Of a DNA stretch of 64,000 nucleotides, positions 16,222 to 60,371 are shown piece after piece (position 1 is the stretch's first letter; the number at the start of each line of letters is the position of its first letter). The DNA is taken from positions 4,501 through 68,500 of the forward strand of contig DATJIR010000380.1 in NCBI GenBank assembly GCA_035493135.1, written 5' to 3'. A program made the translations under genes and the position numbers. The notes under the pieces are model-generated. The model saw only the letters and a program-made list of their open reading frames with translations, was not told the origin of the DNA and ran no database searches. The stretch comes from Verrucomicrobiia bacterium (GTDB taxonomy: Bacteria > Methylomirabilota > Methylomirabilia > Rokubacteriales > CSP1-6).

Positions 16222-16293
16222 GAGGGCGTTCCGCAGAGCGTGCCGCCGCCCGCCGCGTTCGCCTCGATGTCTCGTCGTCGCCTCCGATGGGCG

Positions 16294-33681: not shown

Positions 33682-33685
33682 CACC

Positions 33686-34126: not shown

Positions 34127-34131
34127 GCGCC

Positions 34132-36641: not shown

Positions 36642-36650
36642 GAGAGCTCG

Positions 36651-37118: not shown

Positions 37119-37132
37119 GCGAGGAGGCCGAC

Positions 37133-37702: not shown

Positions 37703-37728
37703 GCGAGGCCGAGAGAGGAGGACGCCCC

Positions 37729-38178
37729 ATGCGAGTCGACGAGCTCATGACGAGGAATCCCATCACGGTCAAGCCGGGAACCGGGGTGCTCGACGCGCGG
37801 CACATGATGGTGGAGAAGCAGATCCGACACCTGCTGGTCGTCGGCCCCGACGGGCTCCTGGCCGGGATGGTGACCGATCGGGACATCCGGCTCAACCTGC
37901 CCTCGCAGGCCACGAGCCTCTCGGTGTGGGAGGTCAACCACCTCCTGACCAAGCTCACGGTGGGGGAGGTCATGACCAAGACCGTGATCACGGTCGGGCC
38001 CGATCGCGACGCACGGGCCGCCGCGGTCCTGATGCTCGACCACAAGATCGGCGCGCTGCCGGTGACCGATGGCGGCAAGCTGATCGGGATCGTCACCGAG
38101 ACCGACATCCTGCGCGGCTTCGTGTGGCTGACCGGCGGGGCGACCGCGGCGCACCCGGAGCCGTACCGCCGGCCCTGA
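37729..38178 (+). CDS. CBS-pair domain protein
   Basis: The CBS repeats are IRHLLVVGPDGLLAGMVTDRDI and IGALPVTDGGKLIGIVTETDIL. GAGAGGAGGA lies upstream. Confidence 0.9.
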   Translation: MRVDELMTRNPITVKPGTGVLDARHMMVEKQIRHLLVVGPDGLLAGMVTDRDIRLNLPSQATSLSVWEVNHLLTKLTVGEVMTKTVITVGPDRDARAAAVLMLDHKIGALPVTDGGKLIGIVTETDILRGFVWLTGGATAAHPEPYRRP

Positions 38179-38245
38179 TCGTCCGCCGAGCGCGGGTGGC
38201 AGGCGACCCGGTGCCGTGGCAGACTGGCGCCGGGAGGTATCGTCC

Positions 38246-38683
38246 ATGTCCACGCCCCGCCCCGCTCCGTCGAGCCGGCCGCCCGGCTGGCAGCAAGAGC
38301 ATGCCCGCCGCTACCTCGCGACCGGCGGCCAGGACGGTCACATCTGGGAGGGCGTGACGACCCTCCTGCTGACCACGACCGGCCGCCGCTCCGGCCAGGC
38401 GCGCACCACCCCACTGATCTACGGACGCGACGGCGAGCGCTACGTGGTGGTGGCGTCCCGCGGCGGCGCCCCGGCGCATCCGGCGTGGTACGACAATCTC
38501 GTCGCGCAGCCCACGGTGCAGGTGCAGGTGATGGCGGATCGGTTCACCGCGCGCGCCCGCACCGCCACCCCGGCCGAGCGGCCGGCGCTGTGGCGGACGA
38601 TGGCCGCGATCTGGCCGCCCTACGACGACTACCAGGCGCGGACCACGCGCGAGATCCCGGTCGTCGTCCTCGAGCGCGTCTGA
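38246..38683 (+). CDS. deazaflavin (F420)-dependent nitroreductase family protein (Ddn/DUF385-like)
   Basis: LLLTTTGRRSGQARTTPLIYGRDGERYVVVASRGGAPAHPAWYDNL matches the Ddn-family core, from memory. GGGAGG lies upstream of ATG 38246. Confidence 0.8.
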   Translation: MSTPRPAPSSRPPGWQQEHARRYLATGGQDGHIWEGVTTLLLTTTGRRSGQARTTPLIYGRDGERYVVVASRGGAPAHPAWYDNLVAQPTVQVQVMADRFTARARTATPAERPALWRTMAAIWPPYDDYQARTTREIPVVVLERV

Positions 38684-42091: not shown

Positions 42092-43377
42092 TCGGCCGGC
42101 GAGCGGCAGGGACAGGAGCGTGCCCACACGCCTATCGGCCCTTCGCCCTTCTCGCGTTCGCGGTCGCCCTCGTCGGAGGGCTCCCGCTCGGCCTCTGGCT
42201 GCTGGGCTGGCTGTACCTCGGAGCCCGGGCGGTTCCGCCGGGATGGCTGCTCCTGCACGCCCACCTGCAGATCTTCGGGTTCTTCGGGACGCTGATCATG
42301 GGAGTGGCCCAGCATCTCCTTCCTCGCTTCACCGGCCGGCCGGTGGAGCGGAGCCGGCTCCTCGTGCTGATCCTGGGCCTGCAGGCCGGCGGCCTGGGGC
42401 TGCGCATCGTCGGCACCGCGGGCGATCTCGGCGCCGCGATCTGGCTGGCCTCGCTGGTCCAGACGGTCGCGTTCCTGCTCTTTGGCGGGTGGGTGTGGGG
42501 CATGCTCGATCCGCCGCCGCTCGCCTTCCTCCGGTGGCATCTCACCGCGAGCAGCCTCTGGCTCGGGGGCGCATGCGCGCTCGAGGCCTGGCTTCGCGGC
42601 GGCGCGCTCGGCTCGGGACTTCCCCTGCCGACAACCGCCGGGCTCCGCGTCGTGCACGTGATGGGGCTCTTCGGTGGCGTGCTCGGCTGGGTCCTGGGTG
42701 TGCTGTTGCGGGCCGGTCCCATGTTCCTCGCTCGCTGGCGCGCGCCCATGGGGCCGGCCCGCGCGCTGCCGTGGCTCCTCGCGCTGGGCATCGGCATCGC
42801 GGCATCGGGTGAGACGGGAGACTGGAGCGCCGAGACCGCGGCGGCCCTGGCCCGGCTCGGCGAGCTCGTCATCCTCGCGGGCGGGGCGGGGCTGATGCTG
42901 CTCGGCGGCGTGCTGACCCGGGCGCGAGATGCGCTCCCGATGGTGGCCCGGAGCCCGGTGGAGTCTCGGATCTTCCGGATGGCGATGCTGTCGGGCGGCG
43001 GGGCCGTCGTCGGCTCGGCGGTGACGGTGGGGATGGCCTGGGCGGGGCTCGAGACACGGGTGCTCGCCGACGTGGTCCGCCACCTGGTCACGGTGGGCGT
43101 CCTGACGTCCGTGGTGGTCGCGATGGTCTTCCGCCTCATTCCCGTCCTCGAGGGTCGGGCCGTGCGCTGGCCTCGGCTGCGGCAGGTGGCGCTGTGGAGC
43201 CTCGCGGTCGGGATCATCCTGAGGAGCGCGGAGGTGCTGGTGAGCCTCGGCTGGGCTTCGCTGGCATCGTGGATCCCGCTCTCGGGCATTCTCGTCTGGA
43301 TCGCGGTGGCGTGCGCCGGGACCAACCTGGCCGCCGCGATCGGCACGCCGGGGCGCCCGGCCGTGCCGCCTCGCTGA
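42088..43377 (+). CDS. NnrS-family haem/copper membrane protein (NO-stress associated)
   Basis: The N-terminal YRPFALLAF... and [25 protein letters not shown] motif, plus ~12 TM segments, fit NnrS. There is no in-frame ATG/GTG/TTG before the conserved N-terminus. The start is proposed at CTG 42088 in a CTGA overlap with the rfbA stop. Confidence 0.7.
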
Positions 43378-43397
43378 CGGACCACGCCCGGTCCGTC
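43376..43397 (+). terminator. hairpin gacggacc-acgccc-ggtccgtc overlapping the NnrS stop
   Basis: An 8-bp perfect stem with a 6-nt loop and no U-tract. Confidence 0.4.
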
Positions 43398-43590
43398 GGA
43401 TCGTGCCCCGCGTCGGCGCGTCTCTATGACCGGCGTCATATCCGCCCCCGGCGCGATGGCCGATGCTGTGATTCGTCCAGCACATCCGCACCCTCAGGAA
43501 GTGACGGGGGAGGTGGGTCGATCGCACTAGGAAAATGAGGCAGCCGCCCGATTCCGTTCGGGGCGGAGGCCTTCTAGCGTAGGGCTGACC

Positions 43591-43602
43591 GAACGATCGT
43601 TC
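43591..43602. promoter_or_regulatory. perfect 12-bp palindrome GAACGATCGTTC, candidate TetR operator
   Basis: It lies 16 nt upstream of the TetR ATG 43618. It is AT-richer than its surroundings. Confidence 0.4.
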
Positions 43603-43617
43603 AGGCGGGGGTTCGGA

Positions 43618-44238
43618 ATGGCGATCGGCGAGCGGTACGAGGGTATCGTCAGCGCGGCGTGCGGGGTCATCGCGCGCCGCGGCTTCCACCAGGCGTCGAC
43701 GCGGGAGATCGCCCGCGCGGCGGGGCTATCGCTGGCCGGCCTCTACCACTACGTCGGCGAGAAGGACGAGCTCCTGTTCCTGGTGCTCGACCGGTCGCTC
43801 GATCGGCTCATCGCGGACCTGGACCGAAATCTCGCCGAGGCGCGCACTGCCGAGGATCGGCTGCTGGCCCTGATCCGCACTCATCTCGATTTCGGCTTTC
43901 ACCACGCGCACGCGCTGCGGATCATCAACCGCGACCACGAGCTGCTGGCCGATCCGCGCCGCTCCGAGATCGCGGCCAAGCGGCAGGCCTACCTGCAGCG
44001 GGGGCTGACCATCCTGCGCGATCTCGATCCGCACCGCCGCTCGGAGGACGAGCTCTTCTCGGCCACGAACCTGCTCCTGGGCATGCTGAACGGGATCGCC
44101 ACCCGGCCCTTCCTCCGGTCCCTCGACGACGCGCGCGGGCTCGCGGCCGAGGTGGGTGCGCTGTTTCTCTACGGATTCCTGGAGCGCTCGGCGGGCGCCG
44201 AGCGAGAGGTGCGCTCCGCCGTGAGGAGGTCCGCATGA
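43618..44238 (+). CDS. TetR/AcrR family transcriptional regulator
   Basis: The N-terminal helix-turn-helix is RRGFHQASTREIARAAGLSLAGLYHYVGEKDELL. Confidence 0.9.
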   Translation: MAIGERYEGIVSAACGVIARRGFHQASTREIARAAGLSLAGLYHYVGEKDELLFLVLDRSLDRLIADLDRNLAEARTAEDRLLALIRTHLDFGFHHAHALRIINRDHELLADPRRSEIAAKRQAYLQRGLTILRDLDPHRRSEDELFSATNLLLGMLNGIATRPFLRSLDDARGLAAEVGALFLYGFLERSAGAEREVRSAVRRSA

Positions 44239-45389
44239 CGCCCGAGCAGATCGTCGAGCGCAGTCGGGAGCTCGTCGCCCAGCCGCTGGGCGCGGTGGCG
44301 GAGCGCTGGAAGGCCGAGCACCCCGGGGGCCGTGCGGTGGCGGCCTACCCGGTGTGGGCGCCGGCCGAGCTGATCCACGCGGCGGGGATGCTGCCGCTGT
44401 CGCTGCTCGGGGGGGGCACGTCGGTGGAGCTGACCCACGCCGACGCGCGCTTCCAGTCCTTCGTGTGCTCCATCGCCAAGTCCACGCTCGAGCTCGGCTT
44501 CCAGGGCCAGGTCAAGGGCGTGGACGGCTTCGTCTTCTCGAACATCTGCGACGTGGCGCGCAATCTCAGCAGCATCTACCAGCGGAACTTCCCGGGGACC
44601 TTCGTGGAGTACCTGCACCTGCCCCAGAACTCCACCTCCGCCGCGGTGGTGGAGTACGCGGCCGCCGAGCTCCGGCGTCTCGCGGGCGCCTTCGTCGACG
44701 CGTTCGGCCTCGCGGCGAGCCCGGCCGCGCTCGCCAAGAGCATCGAGGTCTACGACGCGCTGCGAGCCCGGCTGCGGGCGCTCTACGCGCTGCGGATCGC
44801 CGAGCCCCACAAGCTCTCCACCGTCGAGCTCTACACCGTGCTGCGCGCCTGCACCCTGGTGCCGCCCGAGGAAGGCATCGCGTGGCTCGACGTCCTGCTC
44901 GCGGAGCTCCCGCGCCGTGCGGCCCGCGCCCGCGACCGGCTGCGGGTGGTGGTCGAGGGGGCCTTCTGCGAGCAGCCGCCGCTGGGCCTGCTGGAGGTGC
45001 TGGAGGAGGCGGGCTGCTACGTCGTCGAGGACGACCTGCTGCTGGGCTGGCGCTGGTTCACCACCGACGTGGCGGGGGAGGGCGATCCGTTCGAGCGACT
45101 GGGCGCGGCCTACGTGAACCAGGCCGTCCCCTCGTCGACCCGCCACGAGAGCCGGCAGCACCGCTCCGTCGGCCTCATCGAGAAGGTGCGGCGCGCGAAG
45201 GCCGACGCGGTGGTGTTCATGCCCGCGAAGTTCTGCGAGCCCGCGCTGTTCGACTACGTTCTGATGAAGCAGGGGCTGGAGCGGGAGGGCATCCCGCACC
45301 TCCTGGTGGAGTTCGAGGAGAAGATGTGGACCTTCGAGCGGACCCGGAACGAGATCGAGACGTTCGTGGAGTCCATGCTGTTCGACTGA
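44235..45389 (+). CDS. benzoyl-CoA reductase / 2-hydroxyacyl-CoA dehydratase family subunit (HGD-D family, BzdN/BcrC-like, 384 aa)
   Basis: ATGA overlap with TetR. The family-typical layout has conserved Cys (...FQSFVCSIAKS..., ...FSNICDV..., ...MPAKFCEP...) and the C-terminus ...IETFVESMLFD. Confidence 0.8.
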   Translation: MTPEQIVERSRELVAQPLGAVAERWKAEHPGGRAVAAYPVWAPAELIHAAGMLPLSLLGGGTSVELTHADARFQSFVCSIAKSTLELGFQGQVKGVDGFVFSNICDVARNLSSIYQRNFPGTFVEYLHLPQNSTSAAVVEYAAAELRRLAGAFVDAFGLAASPAALAKSIEVYDALRARLRALYALRIAEPHKLSTVELYTVLRACTLVPPEEGIAWLDVLLAELPRRAARARDRLRVVVEGAFCEQPPLGLLEVLEEAGCYVVEDDLLLGWRWFTTDVAGEGDPFERLGAAYVNQAVPSSTRHESRQHRSVGLIEKVRRAKADAVVFMPAKFCEPALFDYVLMKQGLEREGIPHLLVEFEEKMWTFERTRNEIETFVESMLFD

Positions 45390-45442
45390 CCGGAGGCTCC
45401 CGCTCCCCCACCGGGGAGTGGGATCGGGACGAGGGGGCGGTC

Positions 45443-46705
45443 ATGACCGCAGTCACCGAACGCCAGTACCAGGGCCAGGTCCACGAGCACTCGCGACGGC
45501 TCATGGCCGCCTGGATGGACGAGCTGTCGCGGGCCGAGGCCGAGGGCCGGCCGACCGGCGCCCTGATGATCTCGGGCAACTGCGTGGAGCTCCTCCGCGC
45601 CTGCCACATCCTGCCGATGTTCCCGGAGGTGACCGCGCTGCAGAACGCGATCCGCAAGAAGTCCCTCCCCCTGATCCTGAAGGCGGAGCAGGCCGGATAC
45701 TCCAGCGACAACTGCGCCTACGTGAAGGCGGACATCGGCCTCTTCCTGGAGGGCGGCATGGGGCCGGGCAAGCCCATCCCGTTCCCGACCATCACCGTCT
45801 GCAACTACGTGGGCTGCAACGTCTACGTGAAGTGGTTCGAGCATCTGGCCGACGTGAGCGGGAGCAAGCTGTTCATCCTGGATGTCCCGTTCGTCCGCAC
45901 CGCGGAGCCGAGCGCGGCGGACGTCCGGTACGTGGTGAGCCAGCTTCGCGAGCTCATCACGCTCGGCGAGAGCGTGTCGGGCCAGAAGTTCGACATCGAC
46001 GAGCTGCGCGAGATCCTGACCCACGCGGCGCGGGCCGAGGACGGGTACGCGCGGGCCAAGATGCTGTGCAAGCGCCACCCGGCGCCCTTCGACGCGTACT
46101 TCGACGCCATCAACATGATGGGGCCGATCAACGTCCTGCGGGGCACGCGGGAGGCGGCCGAGTTCTTCGACGTGGCGGTGGCCGAGTTCGAGGGACTCGT
46201 CGCCCAGGGCCTGGGGCCGCTGAGCGAGGAGCGCTTCCGCACCGTGGTCGAGGGGCCGCCGCCCTATCCCTTCTACCGGAACTTCCGGAACCTCTTCGCC
46301 AGATGGGGCGCGGTGGCGGTGGCTTCCACCTACTCCACGGTCGGAGGCATCTGGGAGTGGGGCTTCCGCCACGACCCGCGCCGGCCGCTCGAGTCCATCG
46401 CCGAGCAGATGCTGCGCGAGAACCTCACCAACCGCTCCATCGTCGCGCGCTACGCGCAGATCAAGCGCTACGTCGAGGAGTGGGAGGCCGACGCGCTCGT
46501 CATCCACTCCATCAAGTCCTGCCGGCTCTTCTCGGCCGGGCAGGGAGACATGCGCGACTACTTCACCCAGAAGCTCGGGGTGCCGACCCTCATGGTGGAG
46601 TCGGACCTCGAGGACCCGCGCTACTACGCGGAGGCCCAGATCAAGAACCGCATCGACGCGTTCTTCGAGTCACTCGAGCACCGGAAGCTCGTTCGGAGCG
46701 CCTAA
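45443..46705 (+). CDS. benzoyl-CoA reductase / 2-hydroxyacyl-CoA dehydratase family subunit (HGD-D family, BzdO/BcrB-like, 420 aa)
   Basis: ...SSDNCAYVKADIG..., ...TVCNYVGCNVY..., ...HSIKSCRLFSAGQ... and ...IKNRIDAFFESLE are typical of this family. Confidence 0.8.
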   Translation: MTAVTERQYQGQVHEHSRRLMAAWMDELSRAEAEGRPTGALMISGNCVELLRACHILPMFPEVTALQNAIRKKSLPLILKAEQAGYSSDNCAYVKADIGLFLEGGMGPGKPIPFPTITVCNYVGCNVYVKWFEHLADVSGSKLFILDVPFVRTAEPSAADVRYVVSQLRELITLGESVSGQKFDIDELREILTHAARAEDGYARAKMLCKRHPAPFDAYFDAINMMGPINVLRGTREAAEFFDVAVAEFEGLVAQGLGPLSEERFRTVVEGPPPYPFYRNFRNLFARWGAVAVASTYSTVGGIWEWGFRHDPRRPLESIAEQMLRENLTNRSIVARYAQIKRYVEEWEADALVIHSIKSCRLFSAGQGDMRDYFTQKLGVPTLMVESDLEDPRYYAEAQIKNRIDAFFESLEHRKLVRSA

Positions 46706-46706
46706 G

Positions 46707-49433
46707 ATGAGCGCCGCCCGCGGCGTCCGGAAGATCCCGGTCTACTGCTACCAGTGCGTGGCGGGGCCGGACCTGCTCAAGGTCCTCGTCGAGGACGGGG
46801 TGGCGGTCGGCGTCGAGCCGAACAGCGAGCTGGCCGACGTGCATCCGGCCTGCGGGACGGTGTGCGTCCGCGCCTACGCGCTGGTCCAGAAGCTCTACAA
46901 TCCGGCCCGCGTCCAGACTCCGATGCGCCGCACCAATCCCCGCAAGGGCCGCAACGAGGACCCCGGCTGGGAGCCGATCACCTGGGACGAGGCGCTCGGC
47001 ACGCTCGCGACGCGCCTGAACCGCCTGCGGGCCAACGGGCTCGTGGACGAGGCCGGGTATCCGCGCCTGGCCGTGACGCTCGGCTCGGGCGGCATCGCCC
47101 CGGCCTACCTCGGAACCTTCGCCGCCCTCCTGGCCGCCTGGGGCCCGGTGGACCAGGGCATCGGCAGCGGTCAGGGCGTCAAGTGCTACCACTCGGAGCA
47201 CCTGTACGGCGAGTTCTGGCACCGGGCCTTCACGGTGGCGGCGGATCTGCCGCGCAGTGAGTTCGTGCTCTCCTTCGGCTACAACGGCGACGCCTCCGGC
47301 GGCGTCACCGGGGTGTTCCGGCACGCGGAGGCGCGCGCCCGCGGCCTCGAGTGGATCCAGCTCGAGCCGCATCTCTCGGTGACCGGCGCCGGGGCCACCG
47401 AGTGGGTGCCGGTCCGCCCGAAGACGGACGCGGCGGTGCTCTTCGCGCTGCTGCACGTGATCCTGCTCGAGCACGACTGGCGGGCCGTCTGCGACATGCC
47501 CTTTCTCGAGCGCATGACCAGCTCGCCCTACCTCGTCGGTCCCGGCGGCTACTATCTCCGCGACGCCAAGACGAGGAAGCCGCTCGTCTGGGACGCGGGC
47601 AAGAATGGCCCGGTGCCCTTCGACGACGCGGACTGCCTGACCCCGGCGATGGAGGGCGAGTACGTCGTCGCCGGGATCGAGATCGGAGCCGACGGCTCGG
47701 AGAAGAGCGTGAGCGCGCGGGTGAAGCCCGCGTTCGCCCACCTCCTCGAGCACGTGAGGCCCTACACGCCGGAGTGGGCCGCGTCCGTCTCGGACGTGCC
47801 CGCGGAGACCATCCGGCGCCTGGCCCGTGACTACATCCGCCACGCGCGGGTCGGATCCACGATCGCGGTCGAGGGCGTGAAGTATCCCCACCGGCCGGTC
47901 GCGGTGCTGCTCGGCAAGACCGTGACCAACGGCTGGGGCGGCTACGAGTGCTGCTGGGCCCGGACGGTGCTGGCCGCGCTCGTGGGCGCCCTCGAGGTCC
48001 CGGGCGGCATCCTGGGCACCACCGTGAGGCTCAACCGGCCGGCCCAGAACCGCCAGGATTCGGTGCGGCCGGGCCCCGACGGCTTCATGGAGCAGCCGCT
48101 CAACCCCACCGAGAAGGGCACGTGGCAGGCGGCGCCCCACATTCGCAACGCGTATCGCACGCTCGTCCCCCTGGCCGATCACTCGCCCTGGTCCGCGGCG
48201 CTGGGACCCGCGCACCTGCCGTGGCTGTTCATGGACCGCCCGCCCGAGGCCTGGCCGGCCCCGACCGTGCCGGAGGTCTGGATCATCTACCGGACGAACC
48301 CGGCCATCTCCAACTGGGACGTCGAACGCATCGAGCACCAGCTCGAGCGCTTTCCCTTCGTGGCCGCGTTCGCCTATACCCAGGACGAGACCAACTGGTA
48401 CGCGGACCTCCTCCTGCCGGAAGCCACCGATCTCGAATCGCTGCAGCTCTACCGGATCGGCGGCACCAAGTACATCGAGCAGTACTGGCAGCACACCGGC
48501 TGGGCCCTGCGCCAGCCGGTCGTCAAGCCCCCCGTCGCCGCCCGGGATCTCACCGACATCGCCACCGAGCTGGCCGCCCGCACCGGGCTCCTCCCGGAAT
48601 ACCTGGCCGCGCTCAACCGCGGCAGCGGGACCACGGTCCCGCTCAAGGGCGACGACTACGACTATTCGTTCTCGGATGCGATCCGCCCGACCGCGGACGA
48701 GATCTGGGATCGGGTCTGCCGCGCCGCCACCTGGTCGCTGAGCCGCGGTGCGGTCGAGCGCGATCTCGAATGGTTCAAGCAACACGGCGCCTTCTTCGTC
48801 CCGTTCCGGACCAGGCAGTACTTCCTGCACGGGGCCATGGTGGCGCAGGGCCTGCGCTACGAGCTTCCCTATCAGGAGCGGATCAAGCGGGTGGGCGAGC
48901 AGCTGGCCTCGCGCCTTCACGAGCGCGGCATCACGTGGTGGGATGCGCAGCTCGACGAGTATCAGGCCCTGCCCGGGTGGCGGGACTTTCCCGCGATCTG
49001 GCAGGGGGGCGTCACGCTCCCGGGACAGCCGCCGGGCGCGTTTCCCTTCTGGCTCCTCACCAGTCGCAGCATGCAGTACTCGTGGGGCTCGAACGTCTCG
49101 CTCCCGGTGCTGGCCGACGTCGCCCGCCACGTCAAGGGGCATTTCGGCGTGATGCTCAATCGGGGGGCCGCGCGCGGGCTCGGGATCGAGGACGGCGACC
49201 TCGTCGAGATCGAATCGCGCACCGGACGGACGCGGGGGCGCGCGATCCTGCGCGAAGGCGTGCGTCCCGACGTGGCGGTGGTTCTCCAGCAGTTCGGTCA
49301 CTGGGCCACCCCGTTCGCGCGGGACCTGGGGATGCCGAACCTCAACCAGGTCGCCAGCATGGATCTCGCGCTCACCGATGCGACCGGCAGCGGCGCCGAT
49401 CTGGTGCCGGTCGCGATCCGGCCGCTGCCATGA
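46707..49433 (+). CDS. molybdopterin (bis-MGD) oxidoreductase catalytic subunit, no signal peptide
   Basis: The N-terminal Cys group is C14-x2-C17-x31-C49-x3-C53. The ~900 aa length and DMSO-reductase-family-like sequence fit (...PITWDEAL..., ...[14 protein letters not shown]..., ...[16 protein letters not shown]...GDLVEIES). There is no twin-arginine motif at the N-terminus. Confidence 0.85.
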
Positions 49434-50068
49434 CGCGCTGGGGAATGGCCGTCGACGTGCGGCGCTGCGTGGGCTGCCAGACCTGTACGATCGCCTGCAA
49501 GCAGGAGCACGGCCTGCCCGCCGAGACCGCGTGGCGGTTCGTCGCCGACTGCGAGGTCGGGGAGTACCCCGACGTGCGGCGCCTCTTCCTGCCGATGCAG
49601 TGCATGCACTGCGCCCAGCCTCCGTGCGTGCCGGTCTGCCCGACCGGGGCCTCGCGGCAGCGCGAGGACGGCATCGTGTGGGTGCACGACGACGCCTGCG
49701 TGGGCTGCGGCTACTGCGCCATGGCGTGTCCCTACCAGGCGCGCCATCTGGTCCACACCGGCAGCGGGTATTTCGAGACCCCGACGCCGTCGGAGGCGGC
49801 CCGCGCCCATCCGGAACGCCACGGGGTGATGACCAAGTGCACCTTCTGCAAGGAGCGGGTGGACGGAGGTGTCGGCCGCGGCCTCCGGCCCGGGGTCGAT
49901 CCGGACGCCACCCCGATGTGCGCGCTGGCCTGCATCGCGGGCGCGATCGTCTTCGGGGATCTGGACGACCCCGACAGCCGCGTGGCCCGCCTCGCGGCGG
50001 ATCCCCGCGCCCAGGTCCTCATGCCCGAGTGCGGAACGGAGCCGCGCGTGTACTACCTCGCGGACTGA
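49430..50068 (+). CDS. 4Fe-4S ferredoxin-type electron-transfer subunit (DmsB/PsrB-like)
   Basis: It has four Cys groups: [37 protein letters not shown] and CTFC...CALAC. ATGA overlap with the catalytic subunit. Confidence 0.9.
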
Positions 50069-50071
50069 GCC

Positions 50072-50950
50072 ATGACGACCGCGACGACGGCGCGTTGTCG
50101 GGTGATGATTCCGGCCCAGCCGCAGGTCCTCTGGGGCTGGCCGGCGGTGGCGAACTTCGTCCTGGGCGGTCTCGGCGCCGGGTGGTACGTCGTGGCGGTG
50201 CTCGCGGCGGGCTTCGAGCGCTCGCCGGGCGTGACGGTGGCCTCGTGGGTGGCGCCGGTCCTCGTGATGGCCGGGTTCGCGGCGGTGGCGGGCGAGGCCG
50301 GTCGCCCCCGGCGGGGGCCACGCGTGCTGACGCGGCTCCGGACGTCGTGGATGTCGCGCGAGCTGCTGATCGGAATCGTCTTCGTCTCGCTGGTCGCCGC
50401 CGATCTCATCTTCCCGCTCCGCCTGCATCGAGCCCAGGCCGTGGTCGCGGCGAGCCTGCTCGCGCTCGCCCAGGGCTTCATCGTGAGGCGCGCGCGGGGG
50501 GTGACCGCGTGGGACGTCCCCATCGTGCCGGTGCTGTTCGTGCTCTCGGCCCTGCTCTCGGGTGGCGGCGCCTACCTGCTGGTGGAGACGGGCACGGGGC
50601 GTCCGCTCACCCCCACGACGGTCGGCGTGGGGGTGGCGCTGGTGGCGGCGGCGTTCGTCGCGTGGGGCCGCTACCTCGTGTGGACGTCCGAGGACTCGTT
50701 CGTTCGGGCCGTCGCCCCGCTCCGCGCGACCGGCTCGGCGCTCGTCATCGACGGGGCGGGCTACGGGCTGCCCGTGCTGCTCGGTCTGCTGGCGCTGGCC
50801 ACGCCCGCCACCGCGGGGCCGGTGCTCGCGCTCGCGGGCGCGCTGCTCATCATCGGCCAGGCCTGGGCCAAGGCCCGCCTGATCCGGGTGGCCGGCCAGC
50901 TCCGCCCGATCACCCTCACCATCGCCCTCGCGAAGAGGAGGTCGTCATGA
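50072..50950 (+). CDS. integral membrane anchor subunit (NrfD/PsrC/DmsC-like, ~8 TM)
   Basis: [20 protein letters not shown] resembles the W-x-W...GG..G start of NrfD-type anchors. The rest is hydrophobic throughout. Confidence 0.75.
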
Positions 50951-51771
50951 TCCACGGCGCCGGCGTCGACGTGGGGTCCACCCAGACCAAGGCGGTGATC
51001 GTCGACGAGAGCCGGCGCATCGTGGCGCGGGCGCTGATCGCCACCGGCGCCAACGTGTCGCGCGCGGCGGAGAACGCCTTCCTCGAGGCCTGCCGGGCCG
51101 CGGGGCTCGCACGGGAGACGGTGGGCTACGTCGTGGGCACCGGCTACGGCCGCTACAAGGTCACCTTCGGCGACGCCCAGATCACGGAGATCACGTGCCA
51201 CGCGCGGGGCGCCCACTCGCTGTTCCCGGCGACGCGGACCGTCATCGACATGGGCGGCCAGGACACCAAGGCGATCAAGGTGGGCGCCGACGGCTCCGTC
51301 ATCGACTTCTCGATGAACGACAAGTGCGCGGCCGGTACGGGGCGCTTCCTGTCCGCCGCGGCCGACGTCACCGGCGTCGGGCTCGACGAGATCGGGCCGC
51401 TGGCGCTCCGGGCGACGACCCCCGTCCGGCTCACCTCGGTCTGCACGGTGTTCGTGGAGTCCGACATCATGTCGTACCTGGCCCAGCGCAAGACCATCGA
51501 GGACATCCTGGGCGGCGTCCACAAGGCGATCGCGACCCGGACCATGTCGCTGGTCCGTCGGGTCGGCGTCGAGGACGAGATCACGTTCACCGGCGGGGTG
51601 TCGCGGAACACCGGCATGGTGCGGGCCCTCGAGGAGGTGCTGGGCAAGCCGATCAACGTCAGCGAGGAGGGCCACTACATGGGGGCCCTGGGGGCCGCGC
51701 TGTTCGCGCTGGAGCGCGCGCGGGCCGGGGCTCGCGGCGAGACGGTGGCGTCCGGGGCGGCGAGGAGCTAG
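50947..51771 (+). CDS. BcrA/BcrD/BadF/HgdC-family ATPase subunit (acetate/sugar-kinase fold, FeS-bridging)
   Basis: [12 protein letters not shown] is the ATP motif. [10 protein letters not shown] is present. The cluster Cys motifs are [12 protein letters not shown] and [15 protein letters not shown] overlap with the membrane subunit. Confidence 0.9.
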
Positions 51772-51773
51772 CC

Positions 51774-52574
51774 ATGGTGATCGCGGGCATCGACATCGGG
51801 TCGGGCACGACCAAGTGCGTGCTGGTGGACGAGGCGGGTGCGGTGCGCGGGCGCGGCCAGGTGCGGACCAAGGCCGACTTCGAGAAGGTGACGCGGGAGG
51901 CGATCGCGGCGGCCCTCGAGGCCGCGGGCCACCTCGGGGATGCGATCGCCTACACCGCCACCACGGGTCTCGGGCGCTACGCGGTGGCCTTCCGGGATGT
52001 CCAGATCACCGATCTCACCTGCGGGGCGCGCGGCGCGGCGACGGTCTGCCCGGAGGCGCGCTTCGTGCTCGACATCGGCGCCCAGTGCTCGCGCGCCATT
52101 CGCCTGCGCGAGGGGGGCAAGGTCCGGGAGTTCCACATGAACGAGAAGTGCGCGGCGGGCTCGGGGGGCTTTCTCGAGCGGGCCGCCAAGTATCTCGAGG
52201 TCTCGATCGCCGACGTGGGGGCGCTGTCGCTCCACGCCGAGCGCCCGCAGGCCATCTCGAGCGTGTGCGCGGTGCTGGCCGAGACCGAGATCATCAACCA
52301 CGTCTCCGAGGGGGTCACGGTCGACAACATCCTGCGGGGGATCCACAACTCGCTGGCCGATCGCGCGCTGTCGCTGCTCAAGCGGGTGGGCCTGGACGGT
52401 CCCGTCGCCTTCATCGGCGGCGTGGCCCGGCAGGAGGGCATGGTGGTGGCGCTCCGGGACAAGCTCGGGGTGCCCGTGCACGTGCCGGAGGGCCCGCAGT
52501 TCGCGGCGGCACTCGGCGCCGCGCTCCTCGGCCGCCAGCGGTTCCTCAAGACGGGCCGGGCCGCCGCGGCCTGA
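51774..52574 (+). CDS. second, distinct BcrA/BcrD/HgdC-family ATPase subunit
   Basis: GIDIGSGTTKCV, DIGAQCSRAI, NEKCAAGSGGFL and SSVCAVLAETE are present. It has diverged clearly from the preceding paralogue. Confidence 0.9.
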   Translation: MVIAGIDIGSGTTKCVLVDEAGAVRGRGQVRTKADFEKVTREAIAAALEAAGHLGDAIAYTATTGLGRYAVAFRDVQITDLTCGARGAATVCPEARFVLDIGAQCSRAIRLREGGKVREFHMNEKCAAGSGGFLERAAKYLEVSIADVGALSLHAERPQAISSVCAVLAETEIINHVSEGVTVDNILRGIHNSLADRALSLLKRVGLDGPVAFIGGVARQEGMVVALRDKLGVPVHVPEGPQFAAALGAALLGRQRFLKTGRAAAA

Positions 52575-52585: not shown

Positions 52586-53038
52586 ATGAGCCGGAGCGGC
52601 ATCAACGTGCGCCCGATCGAGCCGTCGGATCTGGATGCCATCGTGCAGATCGACGAGAAGCTGTCCGGCCAGATCCGGAAGGACTACTGGCAGCGACGGC
52701 TCGACATCGCCGTCCTCCGTCCGCCCTGGATGTCGCTGATCGCCGAGACCGACGGCCGACCGGTGGGCTTTCTCTTCGGCTGGGTGGGCGAGTCCGAGTT
52801 CGGCATCGCCCGGCCCACCGGATGGGTCGACCTGATCGGGGTGGCCCCGCCCTATCGCGGCCGCGGCGTCGCCCAGGCCCTCCTCCGCCGTTTCGTGGAC
52901 AGCGGCCGTGAGCTGCGCGCGATCGAGCGGGTGGCGACCCTGATCGACCTCGGGCAGGCCGACGTGCGGGAGTTCTTCACCCGGGTGGGGTTTCACCACG
53001 GCCCGATGATCCACATGGAGCAATCGATCGGACCCTGA
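52586..53038 (+). CDS. GNAT family N-acetyltransferase
   Basis: ...VDLIGVAPPYRGRGVAQALL... is the acetyl-CoA-binding R/Q-x-x-G-x-G/A motif. Confidence 0.8.
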   Translation: MSRSGINVRPIEPSDLDAIVQIDEKLSGQIRKDYWQRRLDIAVLRPPWMSLIAETDGRPVGFLFGWVGESEFGIARPTGWVDLIGVAPPYRGRGVAQALLRRFVDSGRELRAIERVATLIDLGQADVREFFTRVGFHHGPMIHMEQSIGP

Positions 53039-53082
53039 TCGCGCGGAGGAGCGGGGTACGGCAGAAGAAAGGAGGCGTGCGC

Positions 53083-53625
53083 ATGGAACGTGAAGCCACG
53101 ACGAGCCCGACCCAGACGCTGCGGGAGGAGCATCGGGTGATCCTGCGCGCCCTCGCGCTGATCGAGGTGGCCGCGAGCCGGCTGAGCACCGGGCTCCCGC
53201 TGCCGGGCGGCTGGTGGGAGGAGGCGCTCGGCTGGCTGCGGGCCTTCGCCGATCGCAACCACCACGCCAAGGAAGAGGAGTATCTGTTCCCGGCGCTGGG
53301 CCGCGCCGGCGTCCCGGCCGCGGGCGGGCCGGTGGGGGTGATGCTCGACGAGCACGCCGAGGGCCGCGCGCTGATCCAGGCGATGGCCGCGAGCGACCCG
53401 GATCGGCGCGGGGAGGCCGCGCGGCGCTACGTCCACCTGCTGCGCGACCACATCGACAAGGAGAACGAGGTGCTGCTGCCGCTGAGCGACGGGGTCCTCG
53501 ATTCGCAGGCCCAGCTGGTCGTCGCCCGGGGATTCGAGCGGGTCGAGGCCGAGCAAGGGCCCGCGGCCTCCATCGAGCGCGCGGAGGCGGTGGTGGATCG
53601 TCTCGCCGCCGCGCTCGGCGGCTGA
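53083..53625 (+). CDS. hemerythrin (HHE cation-binding) domain protein
   Basis: LREEHRVI..., FADRNHHAKEEEYLFP..., MLDEHAEG... and LLRDHIDKENEVLLP are His/Glu ligand motifs. AAAGGAGG lies 7 nt upstream of ATG 53083. Confidence 0.8.
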   Translation: MEREATTSPTQTLREEHRVILRALALIEVAASRLSTGLPLPGGWWEEALGWLRAFADRNHHAKEEEYLFPALGRAGVPAAGGPVGVMLDEHAEGRALIQAMAASDPDRRGEAARRYVHLLRDHIDKENEVLLPLSDGVLDSQAQLVVARGFERVEAEQGPAASIERAEAVVDRLAAALGG

Positions 53626-56161: not shown

Positions 56162-56620
56162 ATGGACCGAGAGACGCGCTCCACCATGAAGCCGCTACCC
56201 CATCGCTACGAGGTCAAGCTCACCGGCGGTCCGGTCGGCCACGCCACGATCTCCGCCGCGGACGTGCCCGACCTCCGGTCGGCCCCGCCCCTGGAGTTCG
56301 GCGGGCCGGGGGACGCCTGGAGCCCCGAGCATCTGCTGATGGCCGCGGTGCAGACCTGCTTCCTGTTCACCTTCCGCGCGGTCGCCCGGGCCTCCCGGCT
56401 CGAGTTCACCTCGCTCACGCTGTCGGGCGAGGGGACGGTGGACCGCGCCGACGGCGTCACCCGGTTCACCGAGATCGTGCTCCGGCCGCGGGTCGCCCTC
56501 GCACCGGGGGCGGACCGAGCCCGGGCGCTCCGGGCTCTCGAGAAGAGCGAGAAGGCCTGCCTGGTCTCCGCCTCCCTCTCGACGCCGGTGCGACTGGAAC
56601 CCGAGATCGTGGGGGCGTGA
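56162..56620 (+). CDS. OsmC/Ohr family peroxiredoxin-like protein
   Basis: ...SPEHLLMAAVQTCFLFTF... and ...EKSEKACLVSASL carry the two conserved Cys of the OsmC family. Confidence 0.85.
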   Translation: MDRETRSTMKPLPHRYEVKLTGGPVGHATISAADVPDLRSAPPLEFGGPGDAWSPEHLLMAAVQTCFLFTFRAVARASRLEFTSLTLSGEGTVDRADGVTRFTEIVLRPRVALAPGADRARALRALEKSEKACLVSASLSTPVRLEPEIVGA

Positions 56621-58407
56621 CCGTGAACGGCGGCGAGGTCATCGTCGAGTACCTCGCGCGGGAGAAGGTCCCCTACGTCTTCGGTCTCTGCGGTCACGGC
56701 AACGTGGGGCTGCTCGATGCCCTCTACGACCGCACGGACGCCATCCGGACCATCTCGACGCGACACGAGCAGACCGCCGGACACATGGCCGACGCGTACT
56801 TCCGCGTGGCCCACCGCCCGGTCGCGACGCTCACCTCGTGCGGGCCGGGGTCGGCGAACCTGCCCATCGCACTCGCGTGCGCCTTCATGGACTCGTCCGC
56901 GTTCCTCGCGATCACCGGCAACGTTCCGACCTCGCAGTTCAACCGGGCCGCGTTCCAGGAGACGTACCGGCACTTCCAGGCGGACTTCCCGTCGGTCATC
57001 CGTCCGTACGTGAAGCGGAGCTGGCAGCCCACGCGCACCGACATGCTGCCCACCGCGCTCCGGCAGGCGTTCGCCACCATGCTGGGCGGACGGCCCGGCC
57101 CCGTGAACCTCGACGTGCCGTTCAACGTCTTCAAGGAGCCCGCGGACGTCGAAGTCCCCGAGCCGGGCGACTGGCGGGCGGGGATCAGCCCCCGCAGCGG
57201 CGGCGACCCGGAGGCGATCCGGCGGGCGGTCGACCTCCTGCAGACCGCGCGGCGTCCCCTGATCTACGTGGGGCACGGCGTGACCCTCTCCGAGGGGTCG
57301 GACGAGCTGACCACGCTCGCCCATCGCCTGCGGATCCCGGTGATCTTCTCGCCCAACGGCTTCGGCGCGCTGGACATGGCGGATCCGCTGGCGCTGGGCT
57401 TCGTCGGACGCAACGGCGTCTTCCACGCCAACGAGGCCGCCCGCACCTGCGACGTGCTCCTCGCGCTGGGCGTCCGGTTCGACGACCGCTCCAGCAGCTC
57501 CTGGATCCCGGGCTACTCGTTCAACATCCCGCCGACCCGGCTCATCCACGTCGACATCGACGCCGAGGAGATCGGCCGCAACTACCCGGTGCACCTCGGC
57601 ATCGTCGGCGACGCGCGGACCGTGCTGCGCCAGCTTCTCGAGGTGGCGAAGACTGCGCCGCCTCGGGCCGCCGCGCGCGACGCCTGGCTGGCCGACATCG
57701 CGGGGTGGCGCGCCCAGTGGGAGGCGTTCATCCGACCCCAGCGGGAGAGCGAGGTCGAGCCGATCCATCCGCAGCGCGTCGTCCAGGCGCTCCGCGCGGT
57801 GATGCCGGACGACGGCATCATCCTTCCGGACGTCGGCGTCCACCACAACTGGCTCGTCCAGTTCTGGACGGCCCGACGGCCCCGGACGCTGCTCAACAGC
57901 TGGGGCTTCGGGGCCATGGGGTTCGGGGTGTGCGGGGTGCTCGGCGCCAAGCTGGCCGCGCCCGACCGGCCGTGCGTGGCCGTCTGCGGCGACGGCGGCT
58001 TCATGATGCGCCCGGACGTGCTCTGCACCGCCGTCGAGTACGACATTCCCGCGGTGTGGGTCATCTGGAACAACTTCGCCTACGGCGGTATCCGCGACAT
58101 CCAGCTCGGGATGCTGGCCAAGCGCGAGATCGCGACCAGCTTCGTCCGAGAGAAGGACGGCCGGCTGGTCAACCCGGACTTCGTGGCGCTGGCCCGCGCG
58201 TGCGGAGCCGACGGCATCCGCGTGGAGCGCCCGGGCGATCTGGCGGGCGCGCTCGAGCACGCCCTCCAGGCCGCCGCCCCCTTCGTCCTGGACGTGCACG
58301 TGGACCGCGATATCCGGCCGCCGGGGGTGGGCACCTGGGAGCTGCCGCCCCTGCCTTACGGGGAGCCCGCGTTCGGCCAGCGTCGGCTCGCCGCGCCCGA
58401 CGGCTGA
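56617..58407 (+). CDS. thiamine-diphosphate-dependent enzyme (acetolactate synthase / benzoylformate decarboxylase superfamily)
   Basis: The N-terminal Pyr domain has RHEQTAGHMADAY and SCGPGSANL. The ThDP-binding motif is GDGGFMM...WNNFAYGG. GTGA overlap with osmC. Confidence 0.85.
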   Translation: MTVNGGEVIVEYLAREKVPYVFGLCGHGNVGLLDALYDRTDAIRTISTRHEQTAGHMADAYFRVAHRPVATLTSCGPGSANLPIALACAFMDSSAFLAITGNVPTSQFNRAAFQETYRHFQADFPSVIRPYVKRSWQPTRTDMLPTALRQAFATMLGGRPGPVNLDVPFNVFKEPADVEVPEPGDWRAGISPRSGGDPEAIRRAVDLLQTARRPLIYVGHGVTLSEGSDELTTLAHRLRIPVIFSPNGFGALDMADPLALGFVGRNGVFHANEAARTCDVLLALGVRFDDRSSSSWIPGYSFNIPPTRLIHVDIDAEEIGRNYPVHLGIVGDARTVLRQLLEVAKTAPPRAAARDAWLADIAGWRAQWEAFIRPQRESEVEPIHPQRVVQALRAVMPDDGIILPDVGVHHNWLVQFWTARRPRTLLNSWGFGAMGFGVCGVLGAKLAAPDRPCVAVCGDGGFMMRPDVLCTAVEYDIPAVWVIWNNFAYGGIRDIQLGMLAKREIATSFVREKDGRLVNPDFVALARACGADGIRVERPGDLAGALEHALQAAAPFVLDVHVDRDIRPPGVGTWELPPLPYGEPAFGQRRLAAPDG

Positions 58408-58408
58408 T

Positions 58409-60349
58409 ATGGCCAGGTACCCGCTCCTCTTCTCCGCCGGCCGCATCGGTCGCCTGGCGCTCCGGAACCGGATCCTCATGGCGCCCATGGAGAAGAACCT
58501 CGCGCTCCCGACCGGCGCGGTGAGCCGCCGGTACATCGACTACTGCGAGGCGCGCGCGGCCGGGGGCGCCGCGCTCATCCTGCTCGAGTCGATGTACGTT
58601 CACCCGGCCGGCCGGAACCATCGCTACCAGCTCGGCCTCCACGACGACGAGCTGGTCCCCGGCTATCGGCGGCTCATCGAGGCCTGCCAGCGGCACGGCG
58701 CGCTCGTCGGGGCGCAGCTCGAGTTCGCGGGGCGTGAGGCGTCCGCCGCCATCACCGGCACCCAGCCGGTGGCCCCGTCGCCCGTGCCGTGCACCGCCCT
58801 GACCGGCGGGGACGTGCCGCGCCCGCTCGAGATCGAGGAGATCCGCGCTCTCGTGCGCGCGTTCGCGGAGGCGGCCCGCCGTGCCATCGCCGCGGGGTTC
58901 GACGCGGTGGAGATCCACGGGGCGCACGGCTACCTGGTGGGCCAGTTCCTCTCGCCCTACGCCAACCGGCGCGACGACGAGTACGGCGGCGACTTCGAGC
59001 GGCGTCTGCGCTTCCCCCTCGAGGTGATCGCGGCGGTGCGCGAGGTGGTGGGCGAGCGCGTGCCTCTCCTCTACCGGATCAGCGCCGACGAGCACGTGGA
59101 GGGCGGCCTCACGCTCCCGGATGCCTGCCGGATCGCCGGCCGGCTGGAGGCGGGCGGCGTCGATCTGATCGACGTCTCGGCCGGCATCTACGAGTCGGCG
59201 CCGTGGATCGTGCAGCCGATGGAGATGGCCCCGGGGTGCCTGGCCCCGCTGGCGCGGGAGATCCGCCGCCACGTCGGCATCCCGGTGAGCGTGGCGGGAC
59301 GGATCAACGACGCGAGCGTGGCCGAGCACGTCCTCGAGGCCGGCGACGCCGACTTCGTGACCCTGGGGCGCGCCCTGCACGCCGATCCCGCGATGCCGCG
59401 CAAGAGCCGGGAGGGCCGCGAGGACGAGGTCTGCGTCTGCGTGGGCTGCCTGAAGTGCAGCGACCTGCTGGGCCAGAACGAGCCGGTACTCTGCCTGGCG
59501 AACACGCACACCGGGCGGGAGCGGCAGTATGCGATCCGGGGCACGCCGCGGCCGCAGCACGTGCTGGTCGTCGGGGCCGGCCCGGCCGGGCTCGAGGCCG
59601 CGCGCGTGCTCGCCCTCCGCGGGCACGCGGTGACGGTGCTCGAGCGGGCGAGCGAGGTCGGCGGGCAGCTCCGGCTGGCCCGCCTCGTGCCGGGCCGGGC
59701 GGACCTCGCGGGGCTCGCGACCTATCTGGCCGAGGCCGCGACGCGCGCGGGAGCGCGCATCCACCTCGACGTCGAGGCGACGGCGGACGACGTGCTCGCG
59801 CGCCAGCCCGACGCGATCGTGATCGCCACCGGGGCCGGCCCCGGGATCCCGCCCGTCCCCGGCATCGAGCGGAGCCCGGCGGTGGATCCGTTCACGGTGC
59901 TCGGGCGGGCGGCCGGGCCCGTGAAGCGAGCGCTCGTCGTGGGCGGGGGCATGCTGGGCGTCGGGGTGGCCCACGTTCTCGCCGCGCGGGGCACGGAGGT
60001 GATCGTCGTGGAGCCCGGGGGCGAGCTGGCGGGGGAGCTGGGCGTGAGACCGAGGTGGCAGCACGTCGCGGACCTGCGGGCGCGCCGGAACGTGACGATC
60101 CTCCTCGGCGCCACCGTCGAGCAGCTCTATCCCGACGCCGCGCTGGTCCGGCGGGCGGGGGAGGACCTGAAGCTCCGTGACCTGGACCTGGTCGTGCCGA
60201 CGAGACCGATGGTGCCCGCCGCGGATCTCGGCGAGGCGCTCAAGGCGCGCCCCGGCGGCCCCGCCGTCTTCGACATCGGGGATTGCTCGGTGCCGCGCAC
60301 CGCGTTCGAGGCGATGCAGGACGCGGCCGCGCTCGGTCATCGTCTCTGA
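58409..60349 (+). CDS. Old-Yellow-Enzyme/2,4-dienoyl-CoA reductase (FadH)-type flavoprotein with FeS and FAD/NAD(P) domains
   Basis: The OYE barrel has ...RILMAPME... and GFDAVEIHGAHGYLVGQFLSP. The Cys cluster is CVCVGCLKC...C. The Rossmann motif is VLVVGAGPAGLEAA. Confidence 0.9.
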   Translation: MARYPLLFSAGRIGRLALRNRILMAPMEKNLALPTGAVSRRYIDYCEARAAGGAALILLESMYVHPAGRNHRYQLGLHDDELVPGYRRLIEACQRHGALVGAQLEFAGREASAAITGTQPVAPSPVPCTALTGGDVPRPLEIEEIRALVRAFAEAARRAIAAGFDAVEIHGAHGYLVGQFLSPYANRRDDEYGGDFERRLRFPLEVIAAVREVVGERVPLLYRISADEHVEGGLTLPDACRIAGRLEAGGVDLIDVSAGIYESAPWIVQPMEMAPGCLAPLAREIRRHVGIPVSVAGRINDASVAEHVLEAGDADFVTLGRALHADPAMPRKSREGREDEVCVCVGCLKCSDLLGQNEPVLCLANTHTGRERQYAIRGTPRPQHVLVVGAGPAGLEAARVLALRGHAVTVLERASEVGGQLRLARLVPGRADLAGLATYLAEAATRAGARIHLDVEATADDVLARQPDAIVIATGAGPGIPPVPGIERSPAVDPFTVLGRAAGPVKRALVVGGGMLGVGVAHVLAARGTEVIVVEPGGELAGELGVRPRWQHVADLRARRNVTILLGATVEQLYPDAALVRRAGEDLKLRDLDLVVPTRPMVPAADLGEALKARPGGPAVFDIGDCSVPRTAFEAMQDAAALGHRL

Positions 60350-60371
60350 CCGCCCGGCGAGGGAGCCCGTG

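Follow-up and report, generated by a model that had tools for sequence, protein, structure and literature searches.

The DNA analysed here is a 64,000-nucleotide stretch (the window) from an uncultured soil bacterium of the Rokubacteriales, phylum Methylomirabilota (assembly GCA_035493135.1, contig DATJIR010000380.1, positions 4,501 to 68,500), and it contains an operon in which the genes for a putative PadBCD-type molybdenum (Mo) enzyme are nested between the catalytic and the ATPase gene pairs of an ATP-dependent aryl-CoA reductase. The window has a G+C content of 72%, and genes were called by third-position G+C and homology. The first gene of the operon encodes a TetR-family regulator of 206 amino acids (43618..44238, + strand, as are all genes of the operon; TetR_N 1.3e-11, TetR_C_24 2.4e-7). 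It is followed by genes for a BcrC/MbdN-like aryl-CoA reductase subunit of 384 amino acids and 42.5 kDa (44235..45389; HGD-D, PF06050, 8e-68) and a BcrB/MbdO-like subunit of 420 amino acids and 47.3 kDa (45443..46705; HGD-D 2e-58). The three nested genes encode a PadB-like catalytic subunit of the Mo-bis(pyranopterin guanine dinucleotide) (Mo-bisPGD) type with 908 amino acids and 100.2 kDa (46707..49433; Pfam Molybdopterin 5e-18, Molydop_binding 9e-10), a PadC-like 4x[4Fe-4S] electron-transfer subunit of 212 amino acids and 23.1 kDa (49430..50068; Fer4_11 5.5e-13), and a PadD-like membrane anchor of the NrfD/DmsC family with 292 amino acids and 30.3 kDa (50072..50950; NrfD, PF03916, 4.5e-7; DmsC 2e-4). 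The last two genes of the set encode a BcrA/MbdQ-like ATPase subunit of 274 amino acids (50947..51771; BcrAD_BadFG, PF01869, 8e-68) and a BcrD/MbdP-like ATPase subunit of 266 amino acids (51774..52574; BcrAD_BadFG 8e-58). All eight genes named in the original prediction, which had been made from the letters of the window, were thus found with strong family matches, except that the TetR gene starts at 43618 and not at 43591. The tight spacing that it described was recovered in the ATGA overlaps at the TetR/BcrC, Mo/iron-sulfur (FeS) and anchor/first ATPase junctions and in the gaps of 3 nt between the FeS and anchor genes and 2 nt between the two ATPase genes, while the gap between the BcrB-like and Mo genes is 1 nt rather than 2, and a gap of 53 nt between the BcrC-like and BcrB-like genes had not been listed.

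The catalytic subunits of the reductase are most similar to the Bcr and Mbd proteins. The BcrC-like protein scored 299 bits against the NCBIfam model for BcrC (cutoff 421), followed by HadC (189 bits) and BzdN (96 bits), and the BcrB-like protein scored 332 bits against BcrB (cutoff 487), followed by HadB (157 bits) and BzdO (98 bits). The solved structures in the PDB are ranked in the same order, with MbdN (1.9e-72) ahead of HadC (8e-48) and BzdN (5e-27) for the BcrC-like protein, and MbdO (2.8e-72) ahead of HadB (4.5e-39) and BzdO (7.5e-28) for the BcrB-like protein. The first ATPase subunit matches MbdQ (7e-105) ahead of HadI (1e-66), and the second matches MbdQ (3e-59) and MbdP (2.6e-54) and has its best subunit-specific NCBIfam score with BcrD (191 bits). 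Five cysteines of the BcrC-like protein are common to all five aligned BcrC-like sequences from the benzoyl-CoA reductase lineages that occur beside Pad genes. In alignments that include the canonical proteobacterial Bcr proteins, C91, C125 and C360 of the BcrB-like protein, C127 and C166 of the first ATPase subunit, and C126 and C165 of the second are invariant, and the cysteine motifs predicted for the two ATPases (KCAAGTG/SVCTV and KCAAGSG/SVCAV) are present. The ATP motifs of the first ATPase subunit (DVGSTQTK and DMGGQD) are intact, and the second phosphate motif of the other subunit is degenerate (DIGAQCS), as is likewise the case in canonical BcrD (DVGALHG).

Because the Bcr and Mbd models and structures outscore those of Had and Bzd, and because the cluster-binding cysteines are retained, the four-gene set is, as judged from its sequence, a class I aryl-CoA reductase of the Thauera/Mbd type that forms its own subclade, and neither a Bzd-type reductase nor a 2-hydroxyacyl-CoA dehydratase with a homodimeric activator. 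The class I assignment with two distinct ATPase genes was correctly anticipated, in contrast to the Bzd-type label, since the Thauera-type Bcr models and MbdONQP score far better than the Bzd models. Like BcrCBAD/BadDEFG and MbdONQP (PDB 9g87, 9gai), the set consists of two HGD-D proteins and two different ATPases with bridging-cluster cysteines, and every subunit has its best model and structure matches in these systems. The BcrA-like subunit is short (274 amino acids) and resembles MbdQ rather than the BcrA of 437 amino acids. Unlike in both systems, the catalytic and the ATPase gene pairs of the window are parted by three foreign genes.

The Mo subunit contains no twin-arginine motif at its N-terminus, and its open reading frame cannot be extended upstream, as 46707 is the first start codon past a stop. 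In the PadB family, 8-15 residues precede the first cysteine, which leaves room for a twin-arginine translocation (Tat) leader in no member examined, and no Tat or Sec signal was found on the Mo subunit or the PadC-like FeS subunit. A Tat signal that had been missed was ruled out, since the homologues of 940-950 amino acids are longer at the C-terminus and not at the N-terminus. The absence of a leader, as first noted, thus holds, so that the Mo subunit is predicted to face the cytoplasm instead of the periplasm. The C-terminal extension seen in many Rokubacterial homologues (P0002, P0004, P0007, P0015 and P0060) is 35-40 amino acids long, poorly conserved and ends in RGL; it is absent from the copy in the window.

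The N-terminal spacing that was first described for the Mo subunit, C14-x2-C17-x31-C49-x3-C53, is present in the window, but only C14, C17, H46 and C53 are conserved in every Pad locus for which the N-terminus was read (window positions 46746-46868, residues 14-53), and C49 is not. The usual third cluster cysteine is replaced by a proline across the PadB family, which gives the motif C-x2-C ... H ... C, and the "fourth" cysteine moves among positions 19, 40/41, 49 and 52 and is absent in five of the loci compared (L006, L011, L013, L020 and L085; loci are designated here by L and a number). The closest solved structures are ArrA (9e-29) and PsrA (7e-15), and the nearest NCBIfam models, which do not include a PadB model, are among others ArrA, PsrA and PhsA. 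The periplasmic PsrABC, PhsABC and ArrAB enzymes also share the layout of an alpha subunit, a beta subunit and an NrfD-type anchor. However, the PadB family differs from them by the lack of a Tat signal, low overall similarity, synteny with genes for CoA-ester metabolism, and the cysteine motif, which is C-x2-C-x3-C-x27-C in the periplasmic enzymes.

The FeS subunit contains 18 cysteines, 16 of which were assigned by eye to four ferredoxin-type motifs, and among the models it comes closest to DsrO, TtrB, QrcC and ArrB, without reaching the cutoff of any. In 78 of 84 loci, its gene comes after the Mo gene, and the anchor gene is usually the next. The hydropathy profile of the anchor contains about eight hydrophobic helices, presumed to provide a quinone site, and this is the least conserved subunit, with 29-38% identity to the proteobacterial copies. 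Three Rokubacterial loci lack the anchor gene (L010 at 11970-12037, L122 at about 11800 and L126 at about 12650) and have the first ATPase gene within about 70 nt of the FeS gene; the loss of the anchor would leave a soluble PadBC enzyme in these genomes.

The GTDB species, each represented by a single genome, were scanned for relatives of the Mo subunit with two invariant motifs. These are the halves of an active-site-like PadB motif that is conserved in all loci of the family where it was read, and at least 596 species were found to have a relative. Among the best 80 relatives, the PadB identity is 75-89% in Methylomirabilota, 70% in Tectomicrobia, 65% in Anaerolineae, 59-60% in Caldarchaeum and 56-60%, over the full length, to many copies in the Alpha-, Beta- and Gammaproteobacteria. 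The name phenylacetyl-CoA:acceptor oxidoreductase is given by JGI to close homologues in hosts from the Methylomirabilota/Rokubacteria. A gene for a PaaK-type phenylacetate-CoA ligase is located directly 3' of the anchor gene in about 20 proteobacterial loci, with scores of its product of 602 bits (a Magnetospirillum bin) and 588 bits (L039). The locus L039 has a gene for an FlK-type hotdog thioesterase just 5' of the Mo gene, a gene of the benzoate-CoA ligase family, and canonical bcrA and bcrB genes at a distance of 6-9 kb. In L027 (Rhodocyclales), the Mo trio is surrounded by boxABC, an IOR-like pair and bzdN, and an FlK-type thioesterase gene precedes the Mo gene.

We place the trio in the PadBCD family, as its putative members, because of this gene context, which matches that known for the pad genes of Thauera, Azoarcus and Aromatoleum (PMC5109826, PMC4453571). 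The JGI label and the pad-type synteny with the PaaK-type ligase bear out the likeness to PadBCD that had been suggested from the window. As in the PadBCD of Thauera aromatica, Azoarcus evansii and Aromatoleum aromaticum, a Mo-bisPGD subunit without a Tat leader is combined with a 4x[4Fe-4S] subunit and a membrane anchor, and the homologues that are 56-60% identical sit with PaaK/PadJ-type ligases in the Proteobacteria. The subunit sizes in the window are about 100, 23 and 30 kDa, compared to about 93, 27 and 26 kDa for PadBCD as given in the original prediction. Unlike the known pad genes, the trio is located inside a bcr operon, and the host is an uncultured bacterium of the Methylomirabilota.

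To compare the gene order, the proteins of the window were searched against 87 loci collected from the Mo-subunit side and 80 loci that the BcrB-like protein retrieved from metagenomes. The order was counted in 84 loci that have a BcrB of the same clade as in the window and readable DNA after it. In 75 of these, among which a few contigs appear twice because two collections contain them, PadB comes after BcrB, so that misassembly, or an order unique to this contig, is excluded. Where the contig suffices, the full order is TetR-BcrC-BcrB-PadB-PadC-PadD-ATPase-ATPase-GNAT, and only the stretch from TetR to GNAT, with or without a hemerythrin gene, is syntenic across the loci. Five other loci (L117, L118, L119, L139 and L153) contain a contiguous BcrC-BcrB-ATPase-ATPase set, with 83-89% identity for BcrB and 82-89% for the first ATPase, and no Pad gene is found over a further 6 kb downstream of this set in L153. 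In L015 (3327-12800) and L017, the four reductase genes and a hemerythrin gene are followed by PadBCD and GNAT, and in L162 (2799-3714) and L163 (5351-6294), PadB is placed after the first ATPase gene. A third reductase lineage lies 2 kb upstream of PadB in L071 (Anaerolineae), and most of the about 60 Pad loci outside the Rokubacteria have no reductase within 10 kb. The gene order is unusual and evolutionarily labile. Depending on the lineage, the Pad genes are inserted behind bcrB, behind the first ATPase gene or behind both ATPase genes plus hemerythrin, which implies repeated recombination between pad and bcr modules. No description of a nested pad/bcr cluster was found in the literature on Rokubacteria/Methylomirabilota, benzoyl-CoA reductase, PadBCD and MbdONQP. 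Two further loci, the metagenome contigs L154 (8001-9251) and L156 (3193-4443), contain a BcrB-like gene (81% identical), and no BcrC, ATPase or Pad gene was detected within 8 kb of it.

The two companions of the cluster in the window are a GNAT acyltransferase-fold protein of 150 amino acids (52586..53038, +; Acetyltransf_1 9e-14), which begins 11 nt after the second ATPase gene and is kept at this position 3' of the last ATPase gene, and a hemerythrin-domain protein (53077..53625, +), for which the sequence supports a start possibly at 53137. Homologues of the GNAT protein are present in 19 related loci, with 71-80% identity, and hemerythrin homologues lie beside the cluster in L002, L004, L006, L015, L017 and L019. 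GNAT genes also flank the Pad genes in Proteobacteria. In L039, for example, genes for GNAT, hemerythrin and thioesterase proteins accompany the Pad genes (15610-17182 and 6989-7384), and the hemerythrin gene and two GNAT genes are located 3' of the PaaK-type ligase. The simplest history would be that a pad module consisting of PadBCD, GNAT and hemerythrin recombined into a bcr operon.

Upstream of the TetR gene, the palindrome CCGAACGATCGTTCAG (43589..43604, +) has the family consensus CCGAAC-N4-GTTCGG and lies 14-29 nt 5' of the TetR start. It occurs once in the window, compared to 0.11 matches expected by chance, and is found at the same place 5' of TetR in nearly all Rokubacterial loci (L001-L024 and L085-L087). 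An extra GTTCGG half-site at 43607-43617 overlaps the ribosome-binding site GGAGGTTCGG, and a CCGAAC half-site and a CTACCGTA box are located upstream of the palindrome (region 43572-43617). The palindrome is a probable TetR operator, and the layout looks like that of an auto-regulated TetR operator ahead of a single transcription unit. The TetR gene is kept at the head of the operon in related loci, and the closest NCBIfam models of its product are acyl-CoA-sensing FadR-like TetR proteins, all of which score below cutoff. TetR-family repressors that respond to phenylacetyl-CoA exist, as exemplified by PaaR, with which the comparison is one of analogy only. A scan for sigma-70 promoters and terminators in the window gave no matches, and such a scan is uninformative in DNA with 72% G+C.

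We consider it probable that the cluster is a TetR-controlled catabolic operon that combines two separate enzymes of known kinds, which would convert arylacetates or phenylalanine to benzoyl-CoA and then reduce the ring. The PadBCD-type enzyme, anchored in the membrane on the cytoplasmic side, would act on phenylacetyl-CoA, or a close analogue, and oxidise its alpha-methylene group with water as the oxygen donor to yield the 2-oxo acid, and the four [4Fe-4S] clusters would relay the electrons to quinone at the NrfD-like anchor. In the Thauera/Mbd-type reductase, made up of the BcrC/BcrB-like catalytic pair and the heterodimer of BcrA/BcrD-like ATPases, the hydrolysis of ATP would drive low-potential electrons into the ring of benzoyl-CoA. 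Together with the GNAT and hemerythrin genes that usually accompany them, the Pad genes may have entered the reductase operon by recombination at the junction of bcrB and bcrA, with the result that all genes of the operon would be co-transcribed from one operator-controlled promoter. This interpretation builds on gene content, family membership, cofactor motifs, the absence of signal peptides and the conserved but variable synteny, and we infer from it the substrates, the electron acceptor, the direction of the reaction and the effector of the TetR protein. Most likely, the cluster does not represent a new type of enzyme machine, but two known enzymes that belong to one known anaerobic pathway and whose genes are unusually ordered. 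The order PadJ, PadBCD, PadEFGHI and BcrCBAD is established for that pathway, which provides the link between the two enzymes that the original prediction had taken for an undescribed functional coupling (PMC5109826, PMC4453571).

Genes in the vicinity of related clusters bear on this interpretation. Downstream of the cluster, L085-L087, L008, L012, L024, L098, L122 and L126 have genes for a Liv-type ABC transporter together with a PaaK-type ligase, and the PaaK-type ligases of the Rokubacteria, which score 547-563 bits, are located within 10 kb of the cluster in several loci. Upstream of the cluster in L085 are genes for a protein of the benzoate-CoA ligase family (693 bits), a PaaI-like thioesterase, a Dch-like hydratase (180 bits) and a BadH-like dehydrogenase (312 bits), of which the last two score below cutoff. 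Many loci also encode a PAS-GerE regulator upstream, and L002 is among several loci that have a gene for an acyl-CoA dehydrogenase. The Rokubacterial neighbours would fit uptake and activation of phenylacetate and benzoate, alpha-oxidation, ring reduction and modified beta-oxidation.

Several results weigh against the proposed pathway. Neither a PaaK-type ligase nor dch-, had- or oah-like genes were found within the 64-kb window, which thus lacks a padJ gene, unlike the known pad systems. In addition, no padEFGHI genes are nearby and no phenylglyoxylate oxidoreductase of the PadEFGHI type is conserved beside the cluster, so that the middle step of the pathway has no assigned enzyme. The putative membership of the trio in the PadBCD family rests on synteny and pipeline annotation. 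Finally, all four reductase subunits remain below the NCBIfam equivalog cutoffs (214 of 578 bits for BcrA, 332 of 487 for BcrB, 299 of 421 for BcrC and 191 of 313 for BcrD), and the BcrB-like protein shares only 40% identity with a canonical BcrB, for which the score is 831 bits, so that benzoyl-CoA is a presumed substrate.

The same two-enzyme architecture may act on other substrates, such that another arylacetyl-CoA, for example 4-hydroxyphenylacetyl-CoA or indoleacetyl-CoA, is oxidised and the matching substituted aryl-CoA is reduced in place of benzoyl-CoA, which we regard as possible but rather unlikely. The sub-cutoff scores and the distance from canonical BcrB are consistent with such a variant, as are the PadB identity of only 56-60% to the proteobacterial copies and the scores of the PaaK-type ligases, all of which fall just below the PaaK cutoff (547-602 compared to 646 bits). 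Furthermore, the best solved relative of the reductase is a 3-methylbenzoyl-CoA reductase, so that the clade already varies in substrate. However, one Pad lineage occurs beside four reductase lineages (those of the window, L015 and the Chloroflexi, and the canonical/Bzd types), which is most easily explained if benzoyl-CoA, as the common product, is reduced by each of these lineages, and the nearby genes for the benzoate-CoA ligase family, Dch-like and BadH-like proteins also speak for benzoyl-CoA.

It is very unlikely that the HGD-D pair and the ATPases instead form a ketyl-radical dehydratase or dehydroxylase that acts on a 2-hydroxyacyl-CoA, such as mandelyl-CoA or phenyllactyl-CoA. The proteins belong to the same catalytic and ATPase superfamilies as HadBC/HadI and HgdAB/HgdC, with HadB and HadC matches of 1e-39 to 1e-48, and share the cluster-binding cysteine positions of their ATPases. 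A 2-hydroxyacyl-CoA is also the expected intermediate of the Pad reaction. However, the HGD-D pair does not fall with the dehydratases, since the models and structures of BcrB/BcrC and MbdO/MbdN score much better than those of Had. The known activators are homodimeric, whereas two different ATPase genes are present here, one with the degenerate phosphate motif of the BcrD type, and the Dch-like and BadH-like genes of the downstream ring pathway place the cluster in the context of benzoyl-CoA degradation.

Even less credible is a direct coupling, in which the electrons of the Mo enzyme would flow through the 4x[4Fe-4S] subunit into the BcrA/D ATPase module without a free ferredoxin, possibly within a supercomplex. 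In the improbable event of such a coupling, the side-chain oxidation of one aromatic CoA ester, boosted by ATP, could pay for the ring reduction of another, and the sub-lineage without an anchor (L010, L122 and L126) could, with similarly small probability, be its clearest case of a soluble, self-contained electron loop. The nested order and the overlapping stop and start codons, which imply co-translation in fixed proportions, are in agreement with this idea, and so are the absence of a ferredoxin gene from the conserved core of the cluster in the loci compared, the lack of the usual electron exit from the FeS subunit where the anchor is missing, and the fact that Pad and reductase modules became adjacent in at least three different arrangements. 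Against it, the close relatives of the reductase with a contiguous four-gene operon, in one of which Pad is visibly absent, and the many Pad loci without an adjacent reductase show that each module is found in genomes without the other, which speaks against a coupling of an obligate kind, whether physical or electronic, and the insertion point of the Pad genes varies among lineages. The physical coupling put forward in the original prediction is not supported by these observations. The alpha-oxidation of phenylacetyl-CoA also probably yields electrons near the potential of quinone, several hundred millivolts above that of ferredoxin, and in the known pathway one reaction does not directly follow the other. 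A further proposal, that the Mo-like subunit is a scaffold without a cofactor, as in QrcB and ActB, and the trio a quinone-interacting electron module without an organic substrate, is barely conceivable: against the weak score of 103 bits with the QrcB model (cutoff 440) stand the detection of both the molybdopterin and the dinucleotide-binding domains, the invariant active-site-like motif across at least 596 species, the cytoplasmic orientation, the tight synteny with genes for an arylacetate-CoA ligase and a thioesterase, and the presence of Mo reported for the PadBCD of Thauera.

If the catabolic operon proposed above is correct, it would provide a concrete genetic basis for the oxygen-independent breakdown of phenylacetate, phenylalanine and benzoate in the Rokubacteria/Methylomirabilota, which are abundant in soil and groundwater and, to our knowledge, have no cultured representative outside Methylomirabilis. 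The analysis also defines a distinct subclade of ATP-dependent ring reductases of the Thauera/Mbd type. The putative PadBCD family is distributed far more widely than in the few denitrifiers that have been studied, with members in the Proteobacteria, Chloroflexota, Tectomicrobia, Methylomirabilota and Caldarchaeales, and has conserved companions, namely the GNAT proteins, hemerythrin and thioesterase.

Small proteins that contain a single transmembrane helix and four cysteines (CPE... or FWCPF...) recur beside the cluster and have no match in Pfam; they are encoded in L085 (5772-6098, -), L001 (6119-6430, -), L086 (6170-6520) and L087 (16088-16426). Small cysteine-containing proteins near the cluster were considered as ferredoxins and rejected, as they are single-helix membrane proteins without a family match. 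Downstream of the cluster in the window, co-directional genes at 56617-62054 encode an acetolactate-synthase-like thiamine diphosphate enzyme, an Fe-S flavoenzyme of the old yellow enzyme (OYE)/FadH type, for which the best models are a mycofactocin-associated OYE and BaiCD, and a methylmalonyl-CoA-mutase-like protein. The thiamine diphosphate enzyme was discarded as a candidate phenylglyoxylate decarboxylase, since its scores point to an acetolactate-synthase-like protein and its position next to the cluster is not conserved, and the OYE/FadH-like and mutase genes were discarded as parts of the system, since they show no synteny in other loci.

Upstream of the cluster, the run of stress and energy-sensing genes at 33250-38683 encodes an Hsp20 protein, three universal stress proteins, two proteins with a CBS pair, an ADP-forming acyl-CoA synthetase of 683 amino acids and an F420H2-dependent quinone reductase. 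The stress proteins and the synthetase are not conserved next to the cluster. Between this run and the operon, at 42132-43439, there is an open reading frame of ambiguous strand (435 amino acids on the - strand or 344 on the +) that has no match in Pfam and is conserved beside the cluster in L006 (75%), L021 and L014.

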